Source: a virus | Taxonomy: Duplodnaviria > Heunggongvirae > Uroviricota > Caudoviricetes | Length of the DNA: 38,644 nucleotides | Reading direction: 5' to 3' (one strand) | Virus record (IMG/VR): IMGVR_UViG_2850756110_000011 | Shown here: positions 17,928 to 38,514 of the stretch, piece by piece | Position numbering within the stretch: position 1 is the first letter of the stretch | Layout of the letters: each line of letters begins with the position of its first letter | Notes under the pieces: model-generated | Databases searched by the model: none | Seen by the model: the letters and a program-made list of their open reading frames with translations, nothing else | Told to the model about the DNA's origin: nothing | Translations under genes and position numbers: made by a program

Positions 17928-18962
17928 TTAAGTAGCTAGTTTATAACTATCAAATTTAACAATGTTATCACTTACCAATTTATTTATTTCCATCATTCTT
18001 TTTTGTAACGGTATTAACTCGTTACGTACAAACACCAGGCTCGCCTTCTCCACATCCCCAAACCCCCCGACATTATTAGGCATAATCCCCATCATTTGCG
18101 GTGGCACACGATGCGCCGCCATCATGTCATCCCGGCTCACGTTCTTGATGTTCAGAAACTCATCCTTCGCCGCGACTTCTGACAACGGGATGATCTGAAG
18201 CCCGTCCTTTTTGCCGTTAGGCGAGTACATAAACAGATTGCGGAAGTTACCTGGTCCTTTGGCGCTTTTCATCGCATTGCGGAGGTTGTTCACATCCTCC
18301 TGGTTTTGCGCGGCATCGGTCATGTACATGATGAAGCCTGCATGACTGCCGTTAATGTAATACTATCGGCGGAACAGCGTGGCGGACTCGTTGAGCAGGG
18401 CTGACGGAATGGCAGAAAGGTAACCTGGCAGGCCGTAGATCTCTTGGTTGATGTCCGGTTCCATCAGATGAAAGATGCTTCCTTTCGTGAACTGATACGG
18501 CTGCGTGGTCATGCCGTATTGCACAAACCAGTAGGTATCCAGGTCTAATCCGCGTCGGGTGTATTTTGCCAGAGCAGGCTCAAGAGCGATGACCTCTCCG
18601 AACCGGTTTGTGCGTTTCTCCAGGTAAGCGTTACCAAATACCAGATAATCCTGCACAAAACGTGAAAAAGCCTGCTGGCTGAGCAGCGGGTGAGGGATGT
18701 AGGTACTGATCAGAATGTTGCATTTCACCGCAATTGGTGAACTGTGATGCACGGCGGCGCGGAAGGTGCGCGCCAGTCCGTCAAAACTCACTGGCGGCTC
18801 ATACCAGCGATCTGTCTGTACGCATTCCACATAGTCCAGTAGTTCACGGCGGTCCAGAACCGGAACGGGATCGCCGAAGCTGAATGCTTCGGCTGAAGTC
18901 TGGTTTTTATGCTGGGTCTGTTTCGTCGCCGCAGCGCGGTTCTTCTTACTCTTTCCCATCAA
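17928..18962 (-). pseudogene. P2 gpQ-like portal protein with an in-frame TAG stop (18363-18365) after codon 199
   Basis: Two ORF calls (18363-18962 and 17928-18329) are in the same frame: ...SATLFRR*YYINGSHAGFIMYMTDAAQNQ... Confidence 0.8.
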
Positions 18963-23525: not shown

Positions 23526-23972
23526 ATGAAGTTTGTTGCGCCAGAACAGGCACCGGAACAGGCGGAAATCATTAGAAATACGCCGTTCTGGCCTGATGTG
23601 GACCTGTCGGAGTTTCGCAGTGTCATGCGCACTGACGGCACGGTGACGCAGCCGCGTTTAAAGTAGGTTGCACTGTCGGCAATTTCGGAGGTTAACGCAG
23701 AGCTGTATGAATTTCGCAGACGCCAGCAGATGCTGGGGTATGCGTCGGAACAGCTGGACGGGAAAAGTGAGCGCATTCAGCACTATTTCAACGCGGTTTA
23801 CTGCTGGGCTCGCGCCATGCTCAACGAACGTTTCCAGGACTATGACGCCACGGCATCCGGTGCGAAGCGGGGCGAAGAACTGGCGGAAGCAAGCGGTGAT
23901 TTGTGGCGTGACGCCCGCTGGGCCATCAGCCGGGTGCAGGACGCGCCGCACTGCACAGTGGAGCTTATCTGA
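23526..23972 (+). pseudogene. head completion/stabilisation protein, P2 gpL-like, with an in-frame TAG stop (23664-23666) after codon 46
   Basis: MKFVAPEQ...TQPRLK*VALSAISEVNAELYEFRRRQQMLGYASEQ...; both ORF calls share one frame; RBS CAGGAGAAAGCAGCATG. Confidence 0.7.
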
Positions 23973-26218: not shown

Positions 26219-26612
26219 ATTGCAGAAGGTGGACGACTGGCTGAGTGCATTATTGGCGAATCTGGAGCCAGCCGCAAGAAGCCGCATGATGCGCCAGCTG
26301 GCGCAGGAACTGCGCCGGACACAGCAGCAGAACATCAGGATGCAGCGCAATCCAGATGGCAGCAGTTATGAGCCGCGCAGGGTAACAGCACGCAGCAAAA
26401 AGGGGCGCATCAAACGTCAGATGTTTACAAAGCTGCGCACCACAAAATACCTGAAAACTGCAGCCAGCGCCGATTCTGCCAGCGTACAGTTTGAAGGTAG
26501 GGTGCAGCGCATTGCCCGTATTCACCATTACGGCTTGAGTGATCGCGTCAGTCGAAAAGGTATTTATACCATCTATGCGAAAAGGCAGTTATTAGGTTTT
26601 AATGTCCGGTAA
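26211..26612 (+). pseudogene. tail completion protein, P2 gpS-like, 3' end truncated by IS1 copy 2
   Basis: ORF runs into the IS1 left end at 26608 and terminates on IS1-encoded codons. Confidence 0.7.
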
Positions 26613-26662
26613 TGCTGCCAACTTACTGATTTAGTGTATGATGGTGATTTTAAGGTGCTTGC

Positions 26663-26938
26663 GTGGCTTCCATTTCCATCAGATGTCCTTCCTGCTCCGC
26701 TATTGAAGGCGTGGTGCGTAACGGCAAAAGCACTGCCGGACATCAGCGCTATCTCTGCTCTCATTGCCGTAAAACATGGCAACTACAGTTCACTTACACC
26801 GCCTCTCAGCCCGGTACGCACCAGAAAATCATTGATATGGCCATGAATGGCGTCGGATGTCGCGCCAGTGCACGCATTATGGGCGTTGGCCTCAACACGG
26901 TTTTACGTCACTTAAAAAACTCAGGCCGCAGTCGGTAA
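26663..26938 (+). CDS. insA: IS1 InsA
   Basis: [40 protein letters not shown]... Confidence 0.9.
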
Positions 26939-27360
26939 CCTCGCGCATACAACCGGGCAGTGATGTGATTGTCTGCGCTGAAATGGACGAACAGTGGGGC
27001 TACGTCGGTGCTAAATCACGTCAGCGCTGGCTGTTTTACGCGTATGACAGGATACGGAGGACGGTTGTGGCGCACGTCTTCGGTGAACGCACTCTGGCCA
27101 CACTGGAGCGTCTTCTGAGCCTGCTGTCGGCCTTTGAGGTCGTGGTATGGATGACGGATGGCTGGCCGCTGTATGAATCACGCCTGAAGGGAAAGCTGCA
27201 CGTTATCAGCAAGCGTTACACTCAGCGCATTGAGCGACATAATCTGAATCTGAGACAACATCTGGCAAGGCTGGGACGGAAGTCACTGTCGTTCTCAAAA
27301 TCGGTGGAGCTGCATGACAAGGTCATCGGGCATTATCTGAACATAAAACACTATCAGTAA
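26937..27360 (+). CDS. insB: IS1 InsB' frame (expressed as InsAB' by -1 frameshift)
   Basis: ...[28 protein letters not shown]...[40 protein letters not shown]. Confidence 0.8.
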
Positions 27361-27370
27361 GTTGGCAGCA

Positions 27371-27907
27371 TTACCATGCAGCCCTCACAATATAGTTAAA
27401 AGCGACATTTCGTGGGCGTGTTTCATTCGCACCTGCAGGTTTAGTCGTTGCCGCAACAACACCACCCTCTGTAATAGCCGGGTTGGGAATTGGGTAATTA
27501 TCGAAGTCAATGGCCGGAGACAGGGGCGTGATTTGTTTTAAAATCGTGGTGCCTGTAAAACTTTCCAGAGTCTGGTCGTTAGTTCGTGAAGTCCAGATTC
27601 CCCAATAGTGGTTATGACTGACAATCGCACCGTCCTGAAGCGTTAATAATCCCCTTCCGTTATCCACTCCACGTCCGTCATCCCAGCCACGAATAAACTC
27701 ACCGCGTAAATCAGGCAATTTATTTGTCGGGTAAGCCTTTGCCAGTTCCGGGTATTCTTCAGCAGAAAAAGCCGCACCATTGCATTTCAGCCAGCCTGTC
27801 GGCGGAGTGGCTGAAGGCCACGGAACAGGCACACCAACAGGTAATGCAGAGCCTTCTCCCAAACCAACGTTTAAGAAAATGCAGAGATAATGGCTAACTG
27901 GCATCAT
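27371..27907 (-). CDS. phage tail-fibre variable C-terminal segment with tail-collar domain; orphan alternative segment of an invertible tail-fibre locus (5' limit arbitrary)
   Basis: ...PVGVPVPWPSATPPTGWLKCNGAAFSAEEYPELAKAY...LPDLRGEFIRGWDDGRG...ETRPRNVAFNYIVRAAW; stop codon partly supplied by the IS1 end. Confidence 0.7.
   Translation of the reverse strand: MMPVSHYLCIFLNVGLGEGSALPVGVPVPWPSATPPTGWLKCNGAAFSAEEYPELAKAYPTNKLPDLRGEFIRGWDDGRGVDNGRGLLTLQDGAIVSHNHYWGIWTSRTNDQTLESFTGTTILKQITPLSPAIDFDNYPIPNPAITEGGVVAATTKPAGANETRPRNVAFNYIVRAAW
27854..27879. other. gix/hix-like recombination site for the adjacent invertase
   Basis: TTCTCCCAAACCAACGTTTAAGAAAA resembles my recollection of the 26-bp gix/hix sites (TTCCTGTAAACCGAGGTTTTGGATAA). 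Confidence 0.5.
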
Positions 27908-27934: not shown

Positions 27935-28501
27935 ATGCTTATTGGCTATGTACGCGTGTCAACAAATGACCAGAACACCGATTTGCAACGTAATGCACTG
28001 AACTGCGCGGGATGTGAGCGGATTTTTGAGGATAAAATCAGTGGCACTAAGCCCGACAGACCGGGGCTTAAAAAACTGCTCAGGACACTATCGGCAGGAG
28101 ACACGCTGGTTGTCTGGAAGCTGGACAGACTGGGACGCAGTATGCGGCATCTTGTTACGCTGATAGAAGAGTTGCGCCAGCGTGGTGTGAATTTCCGAAG
28201 CCTGACTGACAGTATTGATACCAGTACCCCAATGGGCCGTTTCTTTTTTCACGTCATGGGGGCTCTGGCTGAAATGGAACGTGAACTGATAGTTGAACGT
28301 ACCAGAGCAGGGCTGGCTGCAGCTCGTGCCAAAGGCAGAGTAGGTGGACTCCGTCCTAAGTTGACCACCGAACAGTGGGCACAGATTGGACGTTTACTCG
28401 AGGCCGGAGAATCAAGACAGCGTATTGCACTGATTTTTGATGTGGGCGTTTCTACCATTTATAGAAAATTTCCGGCGAATGAGAGCAATGAATCGCCCTG
28501 A
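27935..28501 (+). CDS. serine recombinase, DNA invertase of the Gin/Hin/Pin/Cin family
   Basis: MLIGYVRVSTNDQNTDLQRNAL...RLGRSMRHLVTLIEEL...GVSTIYRKF; catalytic Ser in the YVRVST motif, C-terminal HTH. Confidence 0.9.
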   Translation: MLIGYVRVSTNDQNTDLQRNALNCAGCERIFEDKISGTKPDRPGLKKLLRTLSAGDTLVVWKLDRLGRSMRHLVTLIEELRQRGVNFRSLTDSIDTSTPMGRFFFHVMGALAEMERELIVERTRAGLAAARAKGRVGGLRPKLTTEQWAQIGRLLEAGESRQRIALIFDVGVSTIYRKFPANESNESP

Positions 28502-30395: not shown

Positions 30396-30698
30396 ATGAG
30401 CGATAAGCAGACTGAAAAGACCATTCAACTGGATACTCCCATCATGCGCGGTAAAACAGAAATTACCGAAATTGTGTTGCGTAAACCGCAGTCCGGTGCG
30501 CTGCGCGGCACACGCCTGCAGGCCATTATGGATATGGATGTGAACGCGATGATGACCGTGATCCCCCGCATCTCCAGTCCGGCACTGACTGCACAGGAAA
30601 TTGCAGAGATGGACCCGGCAGATCTCACTGCCATGTCGGTTGAGGTTGTCACTTTTTTGTTGAAGAAGTCGGTGCTTGCCGGTTTACCGACAGCCTGA
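30396..30698 (+). CDS. tail assembly chaperone, P2 gpE-like
   Basis: 100 aa ending ...VVTFLLKKSVLAGLPTA; contains slippery TTTTTTG. Confidence 0.8.
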   Translation: MSDKQTEKTIQLDTPIMRGKTEITEIVLRKPQSGALRGTRLQAIMDMDVNAMMTVIPRISSPALTAQEIAEMDPADLTAMSVEVVTFLLKKSVLAGLPTA

Positions 30699-30832
30699 CG
30701 GTTGACGATCTGGTGGCTGATATCGCCACCATCTTTCACTGGCCGCCATCCGTTACTGACGTTATGCCGCTGACCGAAGTGCTGGAATGGCGGGATAAAG
30801 CGATTCAGAGAAGCGGGGCCAGCCATGAGTGA
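30396..30832 (+). CDS. tail assembly chaperone extended form (gpE+E'-like) by programmed -1 frameshift at TTTTTTG (30653-30659)
   Basis: -1 frame after the heptamer is open for 58 codons (FFVEEVGACRFTDSLTVDDLVADIATIFHWPP...WRDKAIQRSGASHE) and ends overlapping the tape-measure start. Confidence 0.6.
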
Positions 30833-33800
30833 CAATAACCTGCGTCTGCAGGTGATTCTTAATGCGGTTGACAAACTCACCCGCCCATTTCGATCCGCGC
30901 AGGCCAGTTCAAGAGAACTGGCTGCTGCTGTCAAAAAATCCCGCGATGCAATAAAGCAGCTTGATCAGGCCGGGAGCAGTCTGGACAGCTTCCGAAAGCT
31001 GCAGGCAGAAAATCAGAAATTAGGCGACAGGCTGAACTATGCCCGCCAGCGTGCAAATTTGCTCAGTCAGGAACTGGGAGCGATGGGGCCGCCTTCGCAA
31101 CGTCAGGTTGTTGCTCTGGGCCGTCAACGGCTGGCTGTTCAGCGCCTGGAAGAACGCCAGAAAAAGCTGCAGCAGCAGACGGCGCTTGTGCGTGCAGAAC
31201 TTTATCGTGCTGGTATTTCAGCTAATGATGGCGCCAGTGCGACGGCCCGCATTACCCGTGAAACGATGCGTTATAACAGGCAGCTTTCTGAGCAGGAAGC
31301 GAGGTTACGACGTGTCGGGGAGCAACAGCGAAAAATGCACGCCGCCCGGGGGCTTACGCCAGGCGTCTTGAGGTAAGGGATCGTATTGCAGGTGCCGGAG
31401 CCACCACCACGGCTGCAGGGCTGGCAATGGGCGCACCAGTGATGGCGGCAGTAAAAAGCTATACCAGCATGGAAGATGCCATGAAAGGTGTGGCAAAGCA
31501 GGTCAATGGTCTGCGTGACGATAATGGCAACCGCACTGCGCGTTTTTACGAAATGCAGGGTGCCATCAAGGCTGCCAGCGAACAGTTGCCGATGGAAAAC
31601 GGTGCTGTGGACTTCGCCGCACTGGTTGAAGGTGGTGCGCGCATGAACGTCGCAAACCCTGACGACAGCTGGGAAGACCAGAAACGTGACCTGCTGGCCT
31701 TCGCCAGCACGGCGGCAAAGGCGGCAACAGCCTTTGAACTGCCAGCGGATGAACTGTCAGAAAGTCTGGGGAAAATCGCCCAGCTCTACAAAATCCCTAC
31801 CCGCAATATTGAGCAGCTCGGTGATGCGCTGAACTATCTGGATGATAACGCCATGTCGAAAGGGGCGGACATCATTGATGTCATGCAACGCCTGGGCGGT
31901 GTGGCTGACCGTCTGGATTATCGTAAAGCGGCGGCGCTGGGTTCCACCTTCCTGACACTCGGCGCTGCGCCTGAGGTTGCAGCCAGTGCAGCAAACGCGA
32001 TGGTGCGTGAATTGTCCATTGCCACCATGCAAAGCAAGAGTTTCTTTGAAGGGATGAATCTGCTGAAACTCAATCCAGAAGTGATTGAAAAGCAGATGAC
32101 GAAGGATGCGATGGGAACTATCCAGCGGGTGCTGGAGAAGGTGAATGCGCTGCCACAGGATAAGCGCCTGTCTGCCATGACCATGTTGTTTGGTAAAGAG
32201 TTTGGCGATGACGCAGCGAAACTGGCAAACAACCTGCCGGAACTTCAGCGCCAGTTAAAACTGACTGCGGGCAATGATGCGCTCGGTTCCATGCAGAAAG
32301 AATCCGACATCAACAAGGATTCACTTTCTGCTCAGTGGTTGCTGGTCAAAACCGGAGCACAGAACACCTTCAGCAGCCTGGGGGAAACGCTGCGCCAGCC
32401 GCTGATGGATATTCTGTACACGGTGAAAAGCGTCACGGGGGCGTTGCGTCGCTGGGTGGAAGCTAACCCGGAACTGACGGGCACTCTGATGAAAGTAGCC
32501 GCTGTGGTAGCTGCCGTTACCGTGGGCCTCGGCACCTTAGAGGTGGCGCTGGCTGCAGTGCTGGGGCCGCTGGCAGTCATCCGTCTGGGATTCTCTGTGC
32601 TGGGTATCAAAACGTTACCTTCCGTTACGGCAGCAGTAACCCGAACCAGCAACGCGTTGTCCTGGCTGGCTGGCGCACCACTGGCACTGCTGCGACGCGG
32701 GCTTGCTTCATCGGGCAACGCTGCAGGTTTACTTACTGCGCCGTTGTCGTCTTTGCGCCGCACGGCATCACTGACGGGAAATGTCCTGAAAACTGTAGCA
32801 GGTGCGCCGGTTGCACTTTTGCGGGTCTGGATTATCCGGTTTACGTGCGGTTGCTGTGATGTTTATGAATCCACTGGCGGTACTACGCGGCGGACTGGCT
32901 GCCACAGGCACGGTGCTGCGTATGCTCGCATCCGGTCCACTGGCGATGCTGCGCGTTGCCCTGTATGCCGTCTCTGGTCTGTTAGGTGCTCTGCTCAGTC
33001 TGATAGGTCTTGTGGTTACTGCACTGGCGGGTGTGGCGCTGGTTGTCTGGAAATACTGGCAGCCCATCACCACATTTCTCGGTGGCGTGGTGGAAGGATT
33101 CAAAGCGGCGGCAGGTCCTGTCAGTGCCGCGTTCGAACCGCTTAAGCCTGTGTTCCAGTGGATTGGCGACAAAGTACAGGCGCTGTGGGGCTGGTTTACT
33201 GATCTGCTGACGCCCGTTAAGTCGACCTCTGCCGAACTGCAGAGTGCAGCGGCAATGGGGCGACGATTCGGGGAGGCTCTGGCGGAAGGGCTGAATATGG
33301 TCATGCATCCGCTGGACTCCCTGAAATCCGGCGTTTCCTGGTTGCTGGAGAAACTTGGCATTGTCAGTAAAGAGGCCGCAAAGGCGAAACTGCCGGAAAG
33401 CGTGACGCGTCAGCAACCTGCGACGGTGAATGCAGACGGTAAAGTGATGATGCCATCGGGTGGTTTTCCGTCATGGGGATATGGCTTTGCGGGGATGTAT
33501 GACAGCGGCGGGTATATCCCGCGCGGGCAGTTTGGCATCGTCGGTGAAAACGGGCCGGAAATTGTTAACGGCCCGGCAAATGTGACCAGCCGGAGAAATA
33601 CAGCTGCACTGGCTGCCGTTGTTGCCGGAATGATGGGTGTTGCTGCTACGCCAGCAGAGCTTCCACCGTTGCACCCTTTGGCACTTCCCGCGAAAGGCGG
33701 TGAAGCGATGGTGAGTCGTGCAGCCACTGTGCCGCCCGTTCAACGGATTGAGGCACCGATGCAGATCATCATTCAAACGCAGCCAGGACAAAGTGCGCAG

Positions 33801-33902
33801 GATATTGCGCGGAAGGTGGCCCGCCAGCTTGATGAACGTGAACGCAGGCTGAAGGCAAAAGCCAGGAGTAACTACAGCGATCAGGGGGGATACGACGCAT
33901 GA
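30825..33902 (+). pseudogene. tail tape measure protein (gpT-like), split into three ORFs by a -1 frameshift near 31330 and a +1 frameshift near 32820
   Basis: ORFs 30825-31376, 31427-33145 and 32802-33902 are each tape-measure-like (coiled coil, then GAPLALLR-type repeats); frames differ by -1 then +1. Confidence 0.8.
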
Positions 33903-37980: not shown

Positions 37981-38514
37981 GTGAAACATAAACAACGTTG
38001 GGCAGGGGCAATCTGCTGTTTTGTCCTCTTCATTGTGGTGTGCCTTTTTCTGGCGACGTACATGAAAGGCGCTTTTCGGGCTGCCGGGCATCCTGAAATC
38101 GGCTTGCTGTTTTTCATTCTTCCTGGAGCAGTTGCCAGTTTCTTTTCACAGCGTAGAGAAGTCCTGAAACCTCTATTTGGCGCAATGCTGGCGGCACCCT
38201 GTTCAATGCTCATTATGCGGCTGTTTTTTTCACCGACGCGCTCATTCTGGCAAGAGCTGGCATGGTTACTAAGCGCGGTGTTCTGGTGTGCGCTGGGGCA
38301 CTGTGTTTCTTATTTATCAGTAGTTTGTTTAAACCACAGCACAGAAAAAATCAGTAAAGCCCTCAACGCGAGGGCTTGTCAGACGATCAGGCGTCCAGAT
38401 TTTCTTTCACCCATGCAGCAAAATCGGTATAGCCGCCGATATGTTGCTGATCGACAAAAATCTGCGGCACGGTTTCTACGGGTTTACCTGCCTTTTGTGG
38501 TAGATCTTCTTTAG
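37981..38514 (+). CDS. ybjM: inner membrane protein YbjM homologue; ORF as read is 177 codons and runs antisense into grxA, suggesting a frameshift relative to the roughly 125-aa form I recall
   Basis: MKHKQRWAGAICCFVLFIVVCLFLATYMKGAFRAAGHPEIGLLFF...; an alternative frame ends ...FISSLFKPQHRKNQ* at 38355-38357 before a stem-loop. Confidence 0.6.
   Translation: MKHKQRWAGAICCFVLFIVVCLFLATYMKGAFRAAGHPEIGLLFFILPGAVASFFSQRREVLKPLFGAMLAAPCSMLIMRLFFSPTRSFWQELAWLLSAVFWCALGHCVSYLSVVCLNHSTEKISKALNARACQTIRRPDFLSPMQQNRYSRRYVADRQKSAARFLRVYLPFVVDLL

Follow-up and report, generated by a model that had tools for sequence, protein, structure and literature searches.

The 38,644-nucleotide (nt) stretch of the tailed-phage record IMGVR_UViG_2850756110_000011 (Duplodnaviria; Caudoviricetes) analysed here, termed the window in the following, contains a P2-like prophage remnant (Peduoviridae) inserted beside ybjL in the chromosome of a Shigella (S. 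dysenteriae/boydii group), and the tape-measure gene of this remnant at 30825-33902 is broken by two single-base frameshifts of opposite sign. According to the comparisons presented below, the two lesions probably differ in origin (estimated probability of about 0.8): an extra G at 32823-32825 (site 2) is a genuine, inherited frameshift in the gene of a dead prophage, and a missing G at 31348-31352 (site 1) would be an under-call of the source assembly. The initial annotation had offered real decay or homopolymer sequencing error as the two possible causes; one of each appears to be present, with site 2 representing the decay and site 1 most likely the under-call.

Sequence comparison identifies the region 30825-33902 as a pseudogene of the P2-type (gpT-type) tape-measure gene. 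Its 3078 nt correspond exactly to the length of the single gene annotated as "phage tail tape measure protein" in the close relatives, i.e. E. coli prophages and the Escherichia phage 500465-1 (Peduoviridae, Wadgaonvirus; YP_009949239.1), every one of which encodes the protein as one open reading frame (ORF) of 1025 amino acids (aa). Nucleotide identity to these genes amounts to 94.8-99.7%, and the region is colinear at the upper value with the intact gene of WP_112048226.1 from an E. coli prophage (closest intact sequence: NZ_CP049845). The flanking gene order is that of the relatives (sheath, tube, gpE, gpE', T, gpU, gpD, ogr): The gene lies directly behind the gpE/E' pair, whose gpE' overlaps its start by 8 nt, and ahead of gpU/gpD inside the sheath-tube tail module. 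A PF10145 (PhageMin_Tail) match of 68.5 bits (cutoff 33.2) is found in the middle ORF, and the intact relative gives the same match. What sets the window gene apart from the P2-like gpT genes is its broken reading frame, with one real +1 shift that leaves 667 native residues and a further -1 shift in the deposited sequence. Instead of a single uninterrupted frame of about 1025 codons the window holds three ORFs, delimited as the initial annotation described them (see Table 1); its statement that all three are tape-measure-like holds true by colinearity with the intact gene, whereas PF10145 is matched by ORF2 only. Mapped onto the intact protein, residues 1-176 are encoded at 30825-31352, residues 176-667 at 31349-32824 and residues 668-1025 at 32826-33899.

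Global alignment of the window gene with the closest intact gene (NZ_CP049845, 99.7% identity) revealed eight differences in all; exactly two of these are indels, one -1 and one +1, located 1476 nt apart. At site 1 the window reads CCCGGGGGC, with a run of five G (G5) at 31348-31352 in place of the six (G6) of the relative; this is a single-base change inside a long homopolymer and affects one of the five true G/C 6-mers of the window. At site 2 it reads GCGGGTC; the GGG at 32823-32825 corresponds to GG in the relative and falls within the range first proposed for the +1 shift (32815-32830). The -1 shift had been placed in an A-run at about 31330-31336; this candidate was discarded, as no relative differs from the window in the A5 run at 31331-31335 and the missing base is situated 13 nt downstream in the G-run. 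In the original frame, a stop codon at 31374-31376 follows eight codons after site 1, and in consequence no read-through product can arise from the sequence as written. The compensating pair reported initially therefore exists as a -1/+1 pair, but the restoration of the net frame is coincidental and brings no restoration of function; with site 1 corrected, the extra G at site 2 would still cut the product to 773 aa. The positions of the alleles, the stops behind each shift and the distribution of the alleles over the assemblies are direct observations.

This distribution was established by exact-sequence look-ups of the ORF products in a large protein collection, followed by retrieval of the DNA behind the products and its alignment to the window (assemblies and contigs are designated L005, L009 etc.), and by an exact-allele check in 5,426 complete RefSeq E. 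coli genomes. The 773-aa protein, in which the intact N-terminus (G6 at site 1; 667 native residues) is followed by a tail of 106 out-of-frame residues caused by site 2, was found on more than 200 contigs (164, 28 and others, from NCBI and Logan), and among its carriers are S. boydii and a 2012 draft of S. dysenteriae 225-75. GGG at site 2 is common to L009, L011, L012, L013, L015 and L016; GG is present in the assemblies of other lineages from the same accession batch as the source assembly (L005-L008, L010). In the complete RefSeq E. coli genomes neither G5 at site 1 nor GGG at site 2 was found: All matches carried G6 at site 1 (34/34) and GG at site 2 (658/658). Since GGG occurs in NCTC, Logan and 2012 draft assemblies and is absent from the other lineages and from all E. 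coli, comparison of the sequences indicates that site 2 is real and inherited; the extra G arose in an ancestor of this Shigella lineage and cuts the protein after its 667 native residues.

Site 1 shows a different distribution. The window is 100% identical over 12.5 kb to L011 (CP026805.1, GCA_002949415.1). Two independent assemblies of this lineage were compared with it: The NCTC assembly GCA_900618175.1 (L015) differs by exactly two gaps and no substitution across 17,822 nt, and the same result was obtained over 11,301 nt with a Logan assembly of run SRR5018263 (L016), to which 21 further contigs are similar. In both cases the gaps concern the sixth G at site 1 and the fifth G in a G-run of ybjM, and GGG at site 2 is kept; such alleles (G6 and GGG, together with G5 in ybjM) result in the truncated 773-aa tape-measure protein and an intact YbjM of 125 aa. 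The comparison with independent assemblies that the initial annotation had called for thus confirmed the indel at site 2 and did not reproduce that at site 1, and the alignment to intact tape-measure genes, also suggested there, gave exactly the one -1 and the one +1 indel. By exact protein look-up, the 183-aa product of ORF1 (WP_134800733.1, Shigella dysenteriae) is present on 13 contigs and the 572-aa product of ORF2 on a handful of NCBI contigs. G5 at site 1 occurs on 13 chromosome-sized contigs (>1 Mb), and all nine of those listed belong to the accession batch CP0267xx-CP0268xx; in addition it is present on a larger Logan contig (ERR14938997), which has T6 and G5 deletions plus a T insertion. 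It is associated with both backgrounds at site 2, i.e. with GG (L005-L008, L010) and with GGG (L009, L011-L013). All four combinations of the site-1 and site-2 alleles therefore exist, so that site 1 cannot simply have been inherited; what remains is a mutation that arose repeatedly or an error made repeatedly.

Frequent deletions of this kind are a feature of the batch. Its sister assemblies differ from the window by one to six further single-base deletions per 12.5 kb, every one of them in a G or C run of three to six, and the genes of sheath, tube, gpD, resolvase, IS66 transposase and rimK are split by them; many such deletions were observed in L013 (CP026825.1), L012 (CP026842.1), L010 (CP026840.1) and L035-L037. 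The comparison of the window with the NCTC assembly covered about 29.4 kb (1-3969 and 13167-38644) and yielded two substitutions and three single-base deletions, all three of the latter in G/C runs with a true length of five to six. A deletion-only signature in G/C homopolymers is typical of consensus errors of long-read assemblies, and homopolymer-length errors of this type are known to create spurious frameshifted "pseudogenes". The window agrees with this known pattern insofar as single-base deletions affect only G/C runs, appear sporadically among sister assemblies of one batch and are, in the window, absent from independent assemblies of the same clone; it differs in that the tracts concerned are natural slippage sites as well. 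The missing G at site 1 would hence most likely not exist in the organism and reflect a G/C homopolymer called too short in the consensus of the source assembly: Independent assemblies of this clone lack the allele, and errors of the same type are found elsewhere in the source assembly and in its batch. From these sequence comparisons we infer that the site-1 allele is most likely an artefact and not a private mutation, and the sequencing platform is inferred likewise. The pseudogene counts of the complete-genome assemblies of the batch are likely to be inflated.

The same pattern is encountered in two other genes of the window. ybjM (37981-38514, plus strand) is frameshifted, as the initial annotation suspected, by the loss of one G from its G-run (38295-38298); its product has 177 aa instead of 125 and runs into grxA. 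The exact frameshifted YbjM product of the window was found on five contigs only, all of them larger than 1 Mb and none of them short, and both that are listed originate from the same batch. The dicC-like Cro gene on the minus strand (about 954-1180; 75 aa in its intact versions) does contain the second compensating pair that had been reported, namely an additional T at 1135 (CAAGC to CAATGC, outside any homopolymer) and the loss of one C from a C-run (C5 at 1088-1092). Over 3969 nt, two assemblies of this lineage, the NCTC sequence L022 and L029 (CP026834), differ from the window by no substitution and one gap, C6 in place of C5; both share the T at 1135, which is missing in other lineages, and a stop between the two indels precludes any restoration of function. 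As judged from these alignments, the dicC-like gene thus combines one real +1 with one private -1 in a G/C 6-mer and mirrors the tape-measure gene. The same class of under-calls would account for the shift of ybjM and for that in the C-run of the dicC-like gene; the suspicion of systematic indel errors raised at the outset is accordingly borne out for these two, but not for the T insertion, which is real. The apparent compensation would then have a simple reason: The real lesions are +1 and the error class is always -1, so that the pairs merely look compensating; wherever a gene has a real +1, errors that do nothing but remove bases will imitate compensation. That errors should have fallen into two genes which were frameshifted already might appear an improbable coincidence. 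This objection was dismissed: two of the five true G/C 6-mers in the window are hit by deletions and three of the five lie within the tape-measure and dicC-like genes, from which the chance of one error in each gene is about 0.2. Statistically, a -1/+1 pairing is unremarkable.

The most serious alternative, although an unlikely one, is that both indels are real and that after the ancestral insertion this strain, together with some relatives, lost a G from the G6 run by replication slippage. Several observations weigh against an under-call at site 1 and lend themselves to this explanation. Homopolymer contractions occur naturally, G6 tracts being hot spots of slippage, and a genuine private change from G6 to G5 would be neutral in a gene that was already dead, with no selection acting against it. 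G5 recurs at site 1 on several backgrounds, and four Logan contigs of a phage lineage with 96% identity have G5 there and at a second G6 tract (33884-33889). The identical ybjM G-run frameshift is present on a different haplotype (H27) without the prophage, on 58 contigs including Logan and ENA sequences, and to judge by this spread looks genuine in that prophage-free lineage; the notion that the ybjM shift is always artefactual was abandoned on this account, and the argument for an artefact in the window rests on the clonal comparison. Finally, the sequencing platform of the accession batch was not found in the literature. In a stronger form of the slippage argument, the tract at 31348 and that at 33884-33889 would be hypermutable sites of P2-type tape-measure genes in general and the G5 alleles real and recurrent, which is considered improbable. 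Inheritance of both indels was rejected for site 1 in view of the four allele combinations and of the G6 of the clonal assemblies; more generally, a real contraction at site 1 has to be reconciled with assemblies that show no substitution over 11-18 kb and nevertheless have G6. The three indels private to the window are all deletions in the longest G/C runs, versus two substitutions in about 29 kb. In this lineage, the G5 and ybjM alleles occur exclusively on chromosome-sized contigs of one batch and on none of its short contigs, and that batch has many other G/C-run deletions in otherwise conserved genes. These findings favor an under-call.

The opposite assumption, that both indels are artefacts and the gene is intact in the organism, is suggested by the evident homopolymer errors of the source assembly, but it is highly improbable and was rejected. 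The insertion at site 2 affects a GG dinucleotide and not a long homopolymer; it recurs in the NCTC and Logan assemblies, in the 2012 draft and on more than 200 contigs, and its absence from L005-L008 and L010 of the same batch demonstrates that it segregates by lineage rather than by platform. A functional arrangement, either by programmed recoding or as a compensated frameshift with a recoded middle part of 492 residues within a full-length protein, might be read from the restored net frame and from the three ORFs that together cover the whole gene. It is, however, scarcely conceivable and was likewise dismissed: a stop follows each shift (that in frame 0, at 31374-31376, only eight codons past site 1), the middle segment corresponds to native tape-measure sequence in the shifted frame only, all relatives encode a single 1025-aa ORF and thus share no two-frame arrangement, and neither site of the tape-measure gene contains a slippery heptamer. 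Moreover, the tail could not be built, as baseplate and fibre genes are deleted. The only programmed frameshift expected nearby is that of the tail-assembly chaperone genes gpE/E', which is unrelated to the two indels. The -1 frameshift of P2 E/E+E' makes a programmed event in the neighbourhood expected, given that the pair is located directly upstream (30396-30832) with its TTTTTTG heptamer intact; it concerns another gene, though, and the tape-measure indels have no slippery site and are not conserved in relatives.

The reading of one inherited frameshift plus one under-call is embedded in a prophage that, by its sequence, is dead, its tail module being already non-functional. An IS1 copy (IS, insertion sequence) replaces about 4.6 kb of tail genes, including the 5' part of the fibre gene H, and an IS66-family element interrupts gpA at 13530. 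The portal gene (17931-18959, minus strand) has an in-frame stop after codon 198, and the head-completion gene gpL (23526-23972, plus strand) is interrupted at codon 47 by an in-frame stop and in addition lacks 18 nt at 23745, a deletion that keeps the frame. All of these defects, i.e. the portal and gpL lesions, the IS1 deletion and the truncated gpA, are shared with the independent NCTC assembly, and the portal and gpL lesions are for this reason regarded as real. In a prophage that was no longer functional after IS1 deletion, IS insertion and nonsense mutations, the real frameshift at site 2 is ordinary neutral decay. Shigella prophages and genes are known to decay through IS expansion and accumulation of pseudogenes, and the window is a typical example without unusual features: The region is dense in IS elements (IS1, IS66-family, IS110/ISSso6, IS3-family), tail genes have been deleted by IS1, portal and gpL carry nonsense codons, and the tape-measure frameshift is common to S. 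dysenteriae/boydii assemblies.

Table 1. Coordinates of the tape-measure gene, its indels and related features in the window.
Feature	Position	Strand	Basis or remark
Tape-measure pseudogene (P2 gpT type) of the P2-like prophage remnant	30825-33902	+	Colinearity, PF10145, gene order
ORF1, 183 aa: tape-measure residues 1-176, then 7 out-of-frame codons and stop	30825-31376	+	Frame 0; exact product WP_134800733.1
ORF2, 572 aa: tape-measure residues about 202-667 in shifted frame, then 106 out-of-frame residues past site 2	31427-33145	+	Frame 2
ORF3, 366 aa, mechanical ORF opening at GTG 32802	32802-33902	+	Frame 0
C-terminal third of tape-measure protein, residues 668-1025; untranslated in the true sequence	32826-33902	+	Protein mapping
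Site 1, G5 where relatives have G6 (-1); most likely homopolymer under-call	31348-31352	+	Alignment, allele distribution
Site 2, GGG where intact genes have GG (+1); real, lineage-inherited, truncating	32823-32825	+	Alignment, allele distribution
ybjM, G4 run where same-lineage assemblies have G5 (window-private -1)	38295-38298	+	Comparison with L015/L016
dicC-like Cro gene, C5 run where same-lineage assemblies have C6 (window-private -1)	1088-1092	-	Paired with real +T at 1135
Tail-assembly chaperone genes gpE/gpE'	30396-30832	+	TTTTTTG slippery site 30653-30659 intact
IS1 copy, 768 bp	26608-27375		Replaces gpS end, DUF5677 gene, baseplate V-W-J-I and most of fibre gene H

Further features were observed in the remaining parts of the window. 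Adjoining the IS1 copy, a 495-bp segment of the fibre gene (27376-27870) is inverted with respect to the E. coli prophage, which fits the neighbouring invertase gene (27935-28498). A dense cluster of IS elements at 3400-13530 (IS3-family fragments, two IS66-family elements, two IS110/ISSso6-like transposases and others) lies between a lambdoid remnant (YdaT, Cro and CI-like; 340-3300) and the truncated P2-like gpA; some sister assemblies have the remaining half of gpA just beyond the IS66 element. Between a DinI-like gene and the portal gene, a cargo of two genes with low GC content (32-35%) is present at 15306-17817 on the plus strand: The encoded AAA ATPase (549 aa) and HNH endonuclease (287 aa) match the A and B components of the PADLOC candidate defence system PDC-M01 (E values of 3e-55 and 1e-33), with weaker matches to PtuA (Septu) as well. 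Both genes are intact and 99.8-100% identical to the copies in an E. coli prophage, amid decaying structural genes.

Nothing in these results departs from the known decay of Shigella prophages or from known assembly artefacts. The window is a routine case of a decaying Shigella prophage, on which an equally routine assembly artefact is superimposed, and its biological significance is small. For annotation, the practical conclusion is that a single base missing from a G/C run of five to six in this source assembly should not be taken as evidence of pseudogenisation, which applies to ybjM and to the second, seemingly compensating shifts of the tape-measure and dicC-like genes, while the insertions outside homopolymers are to be regarded as true lesions.

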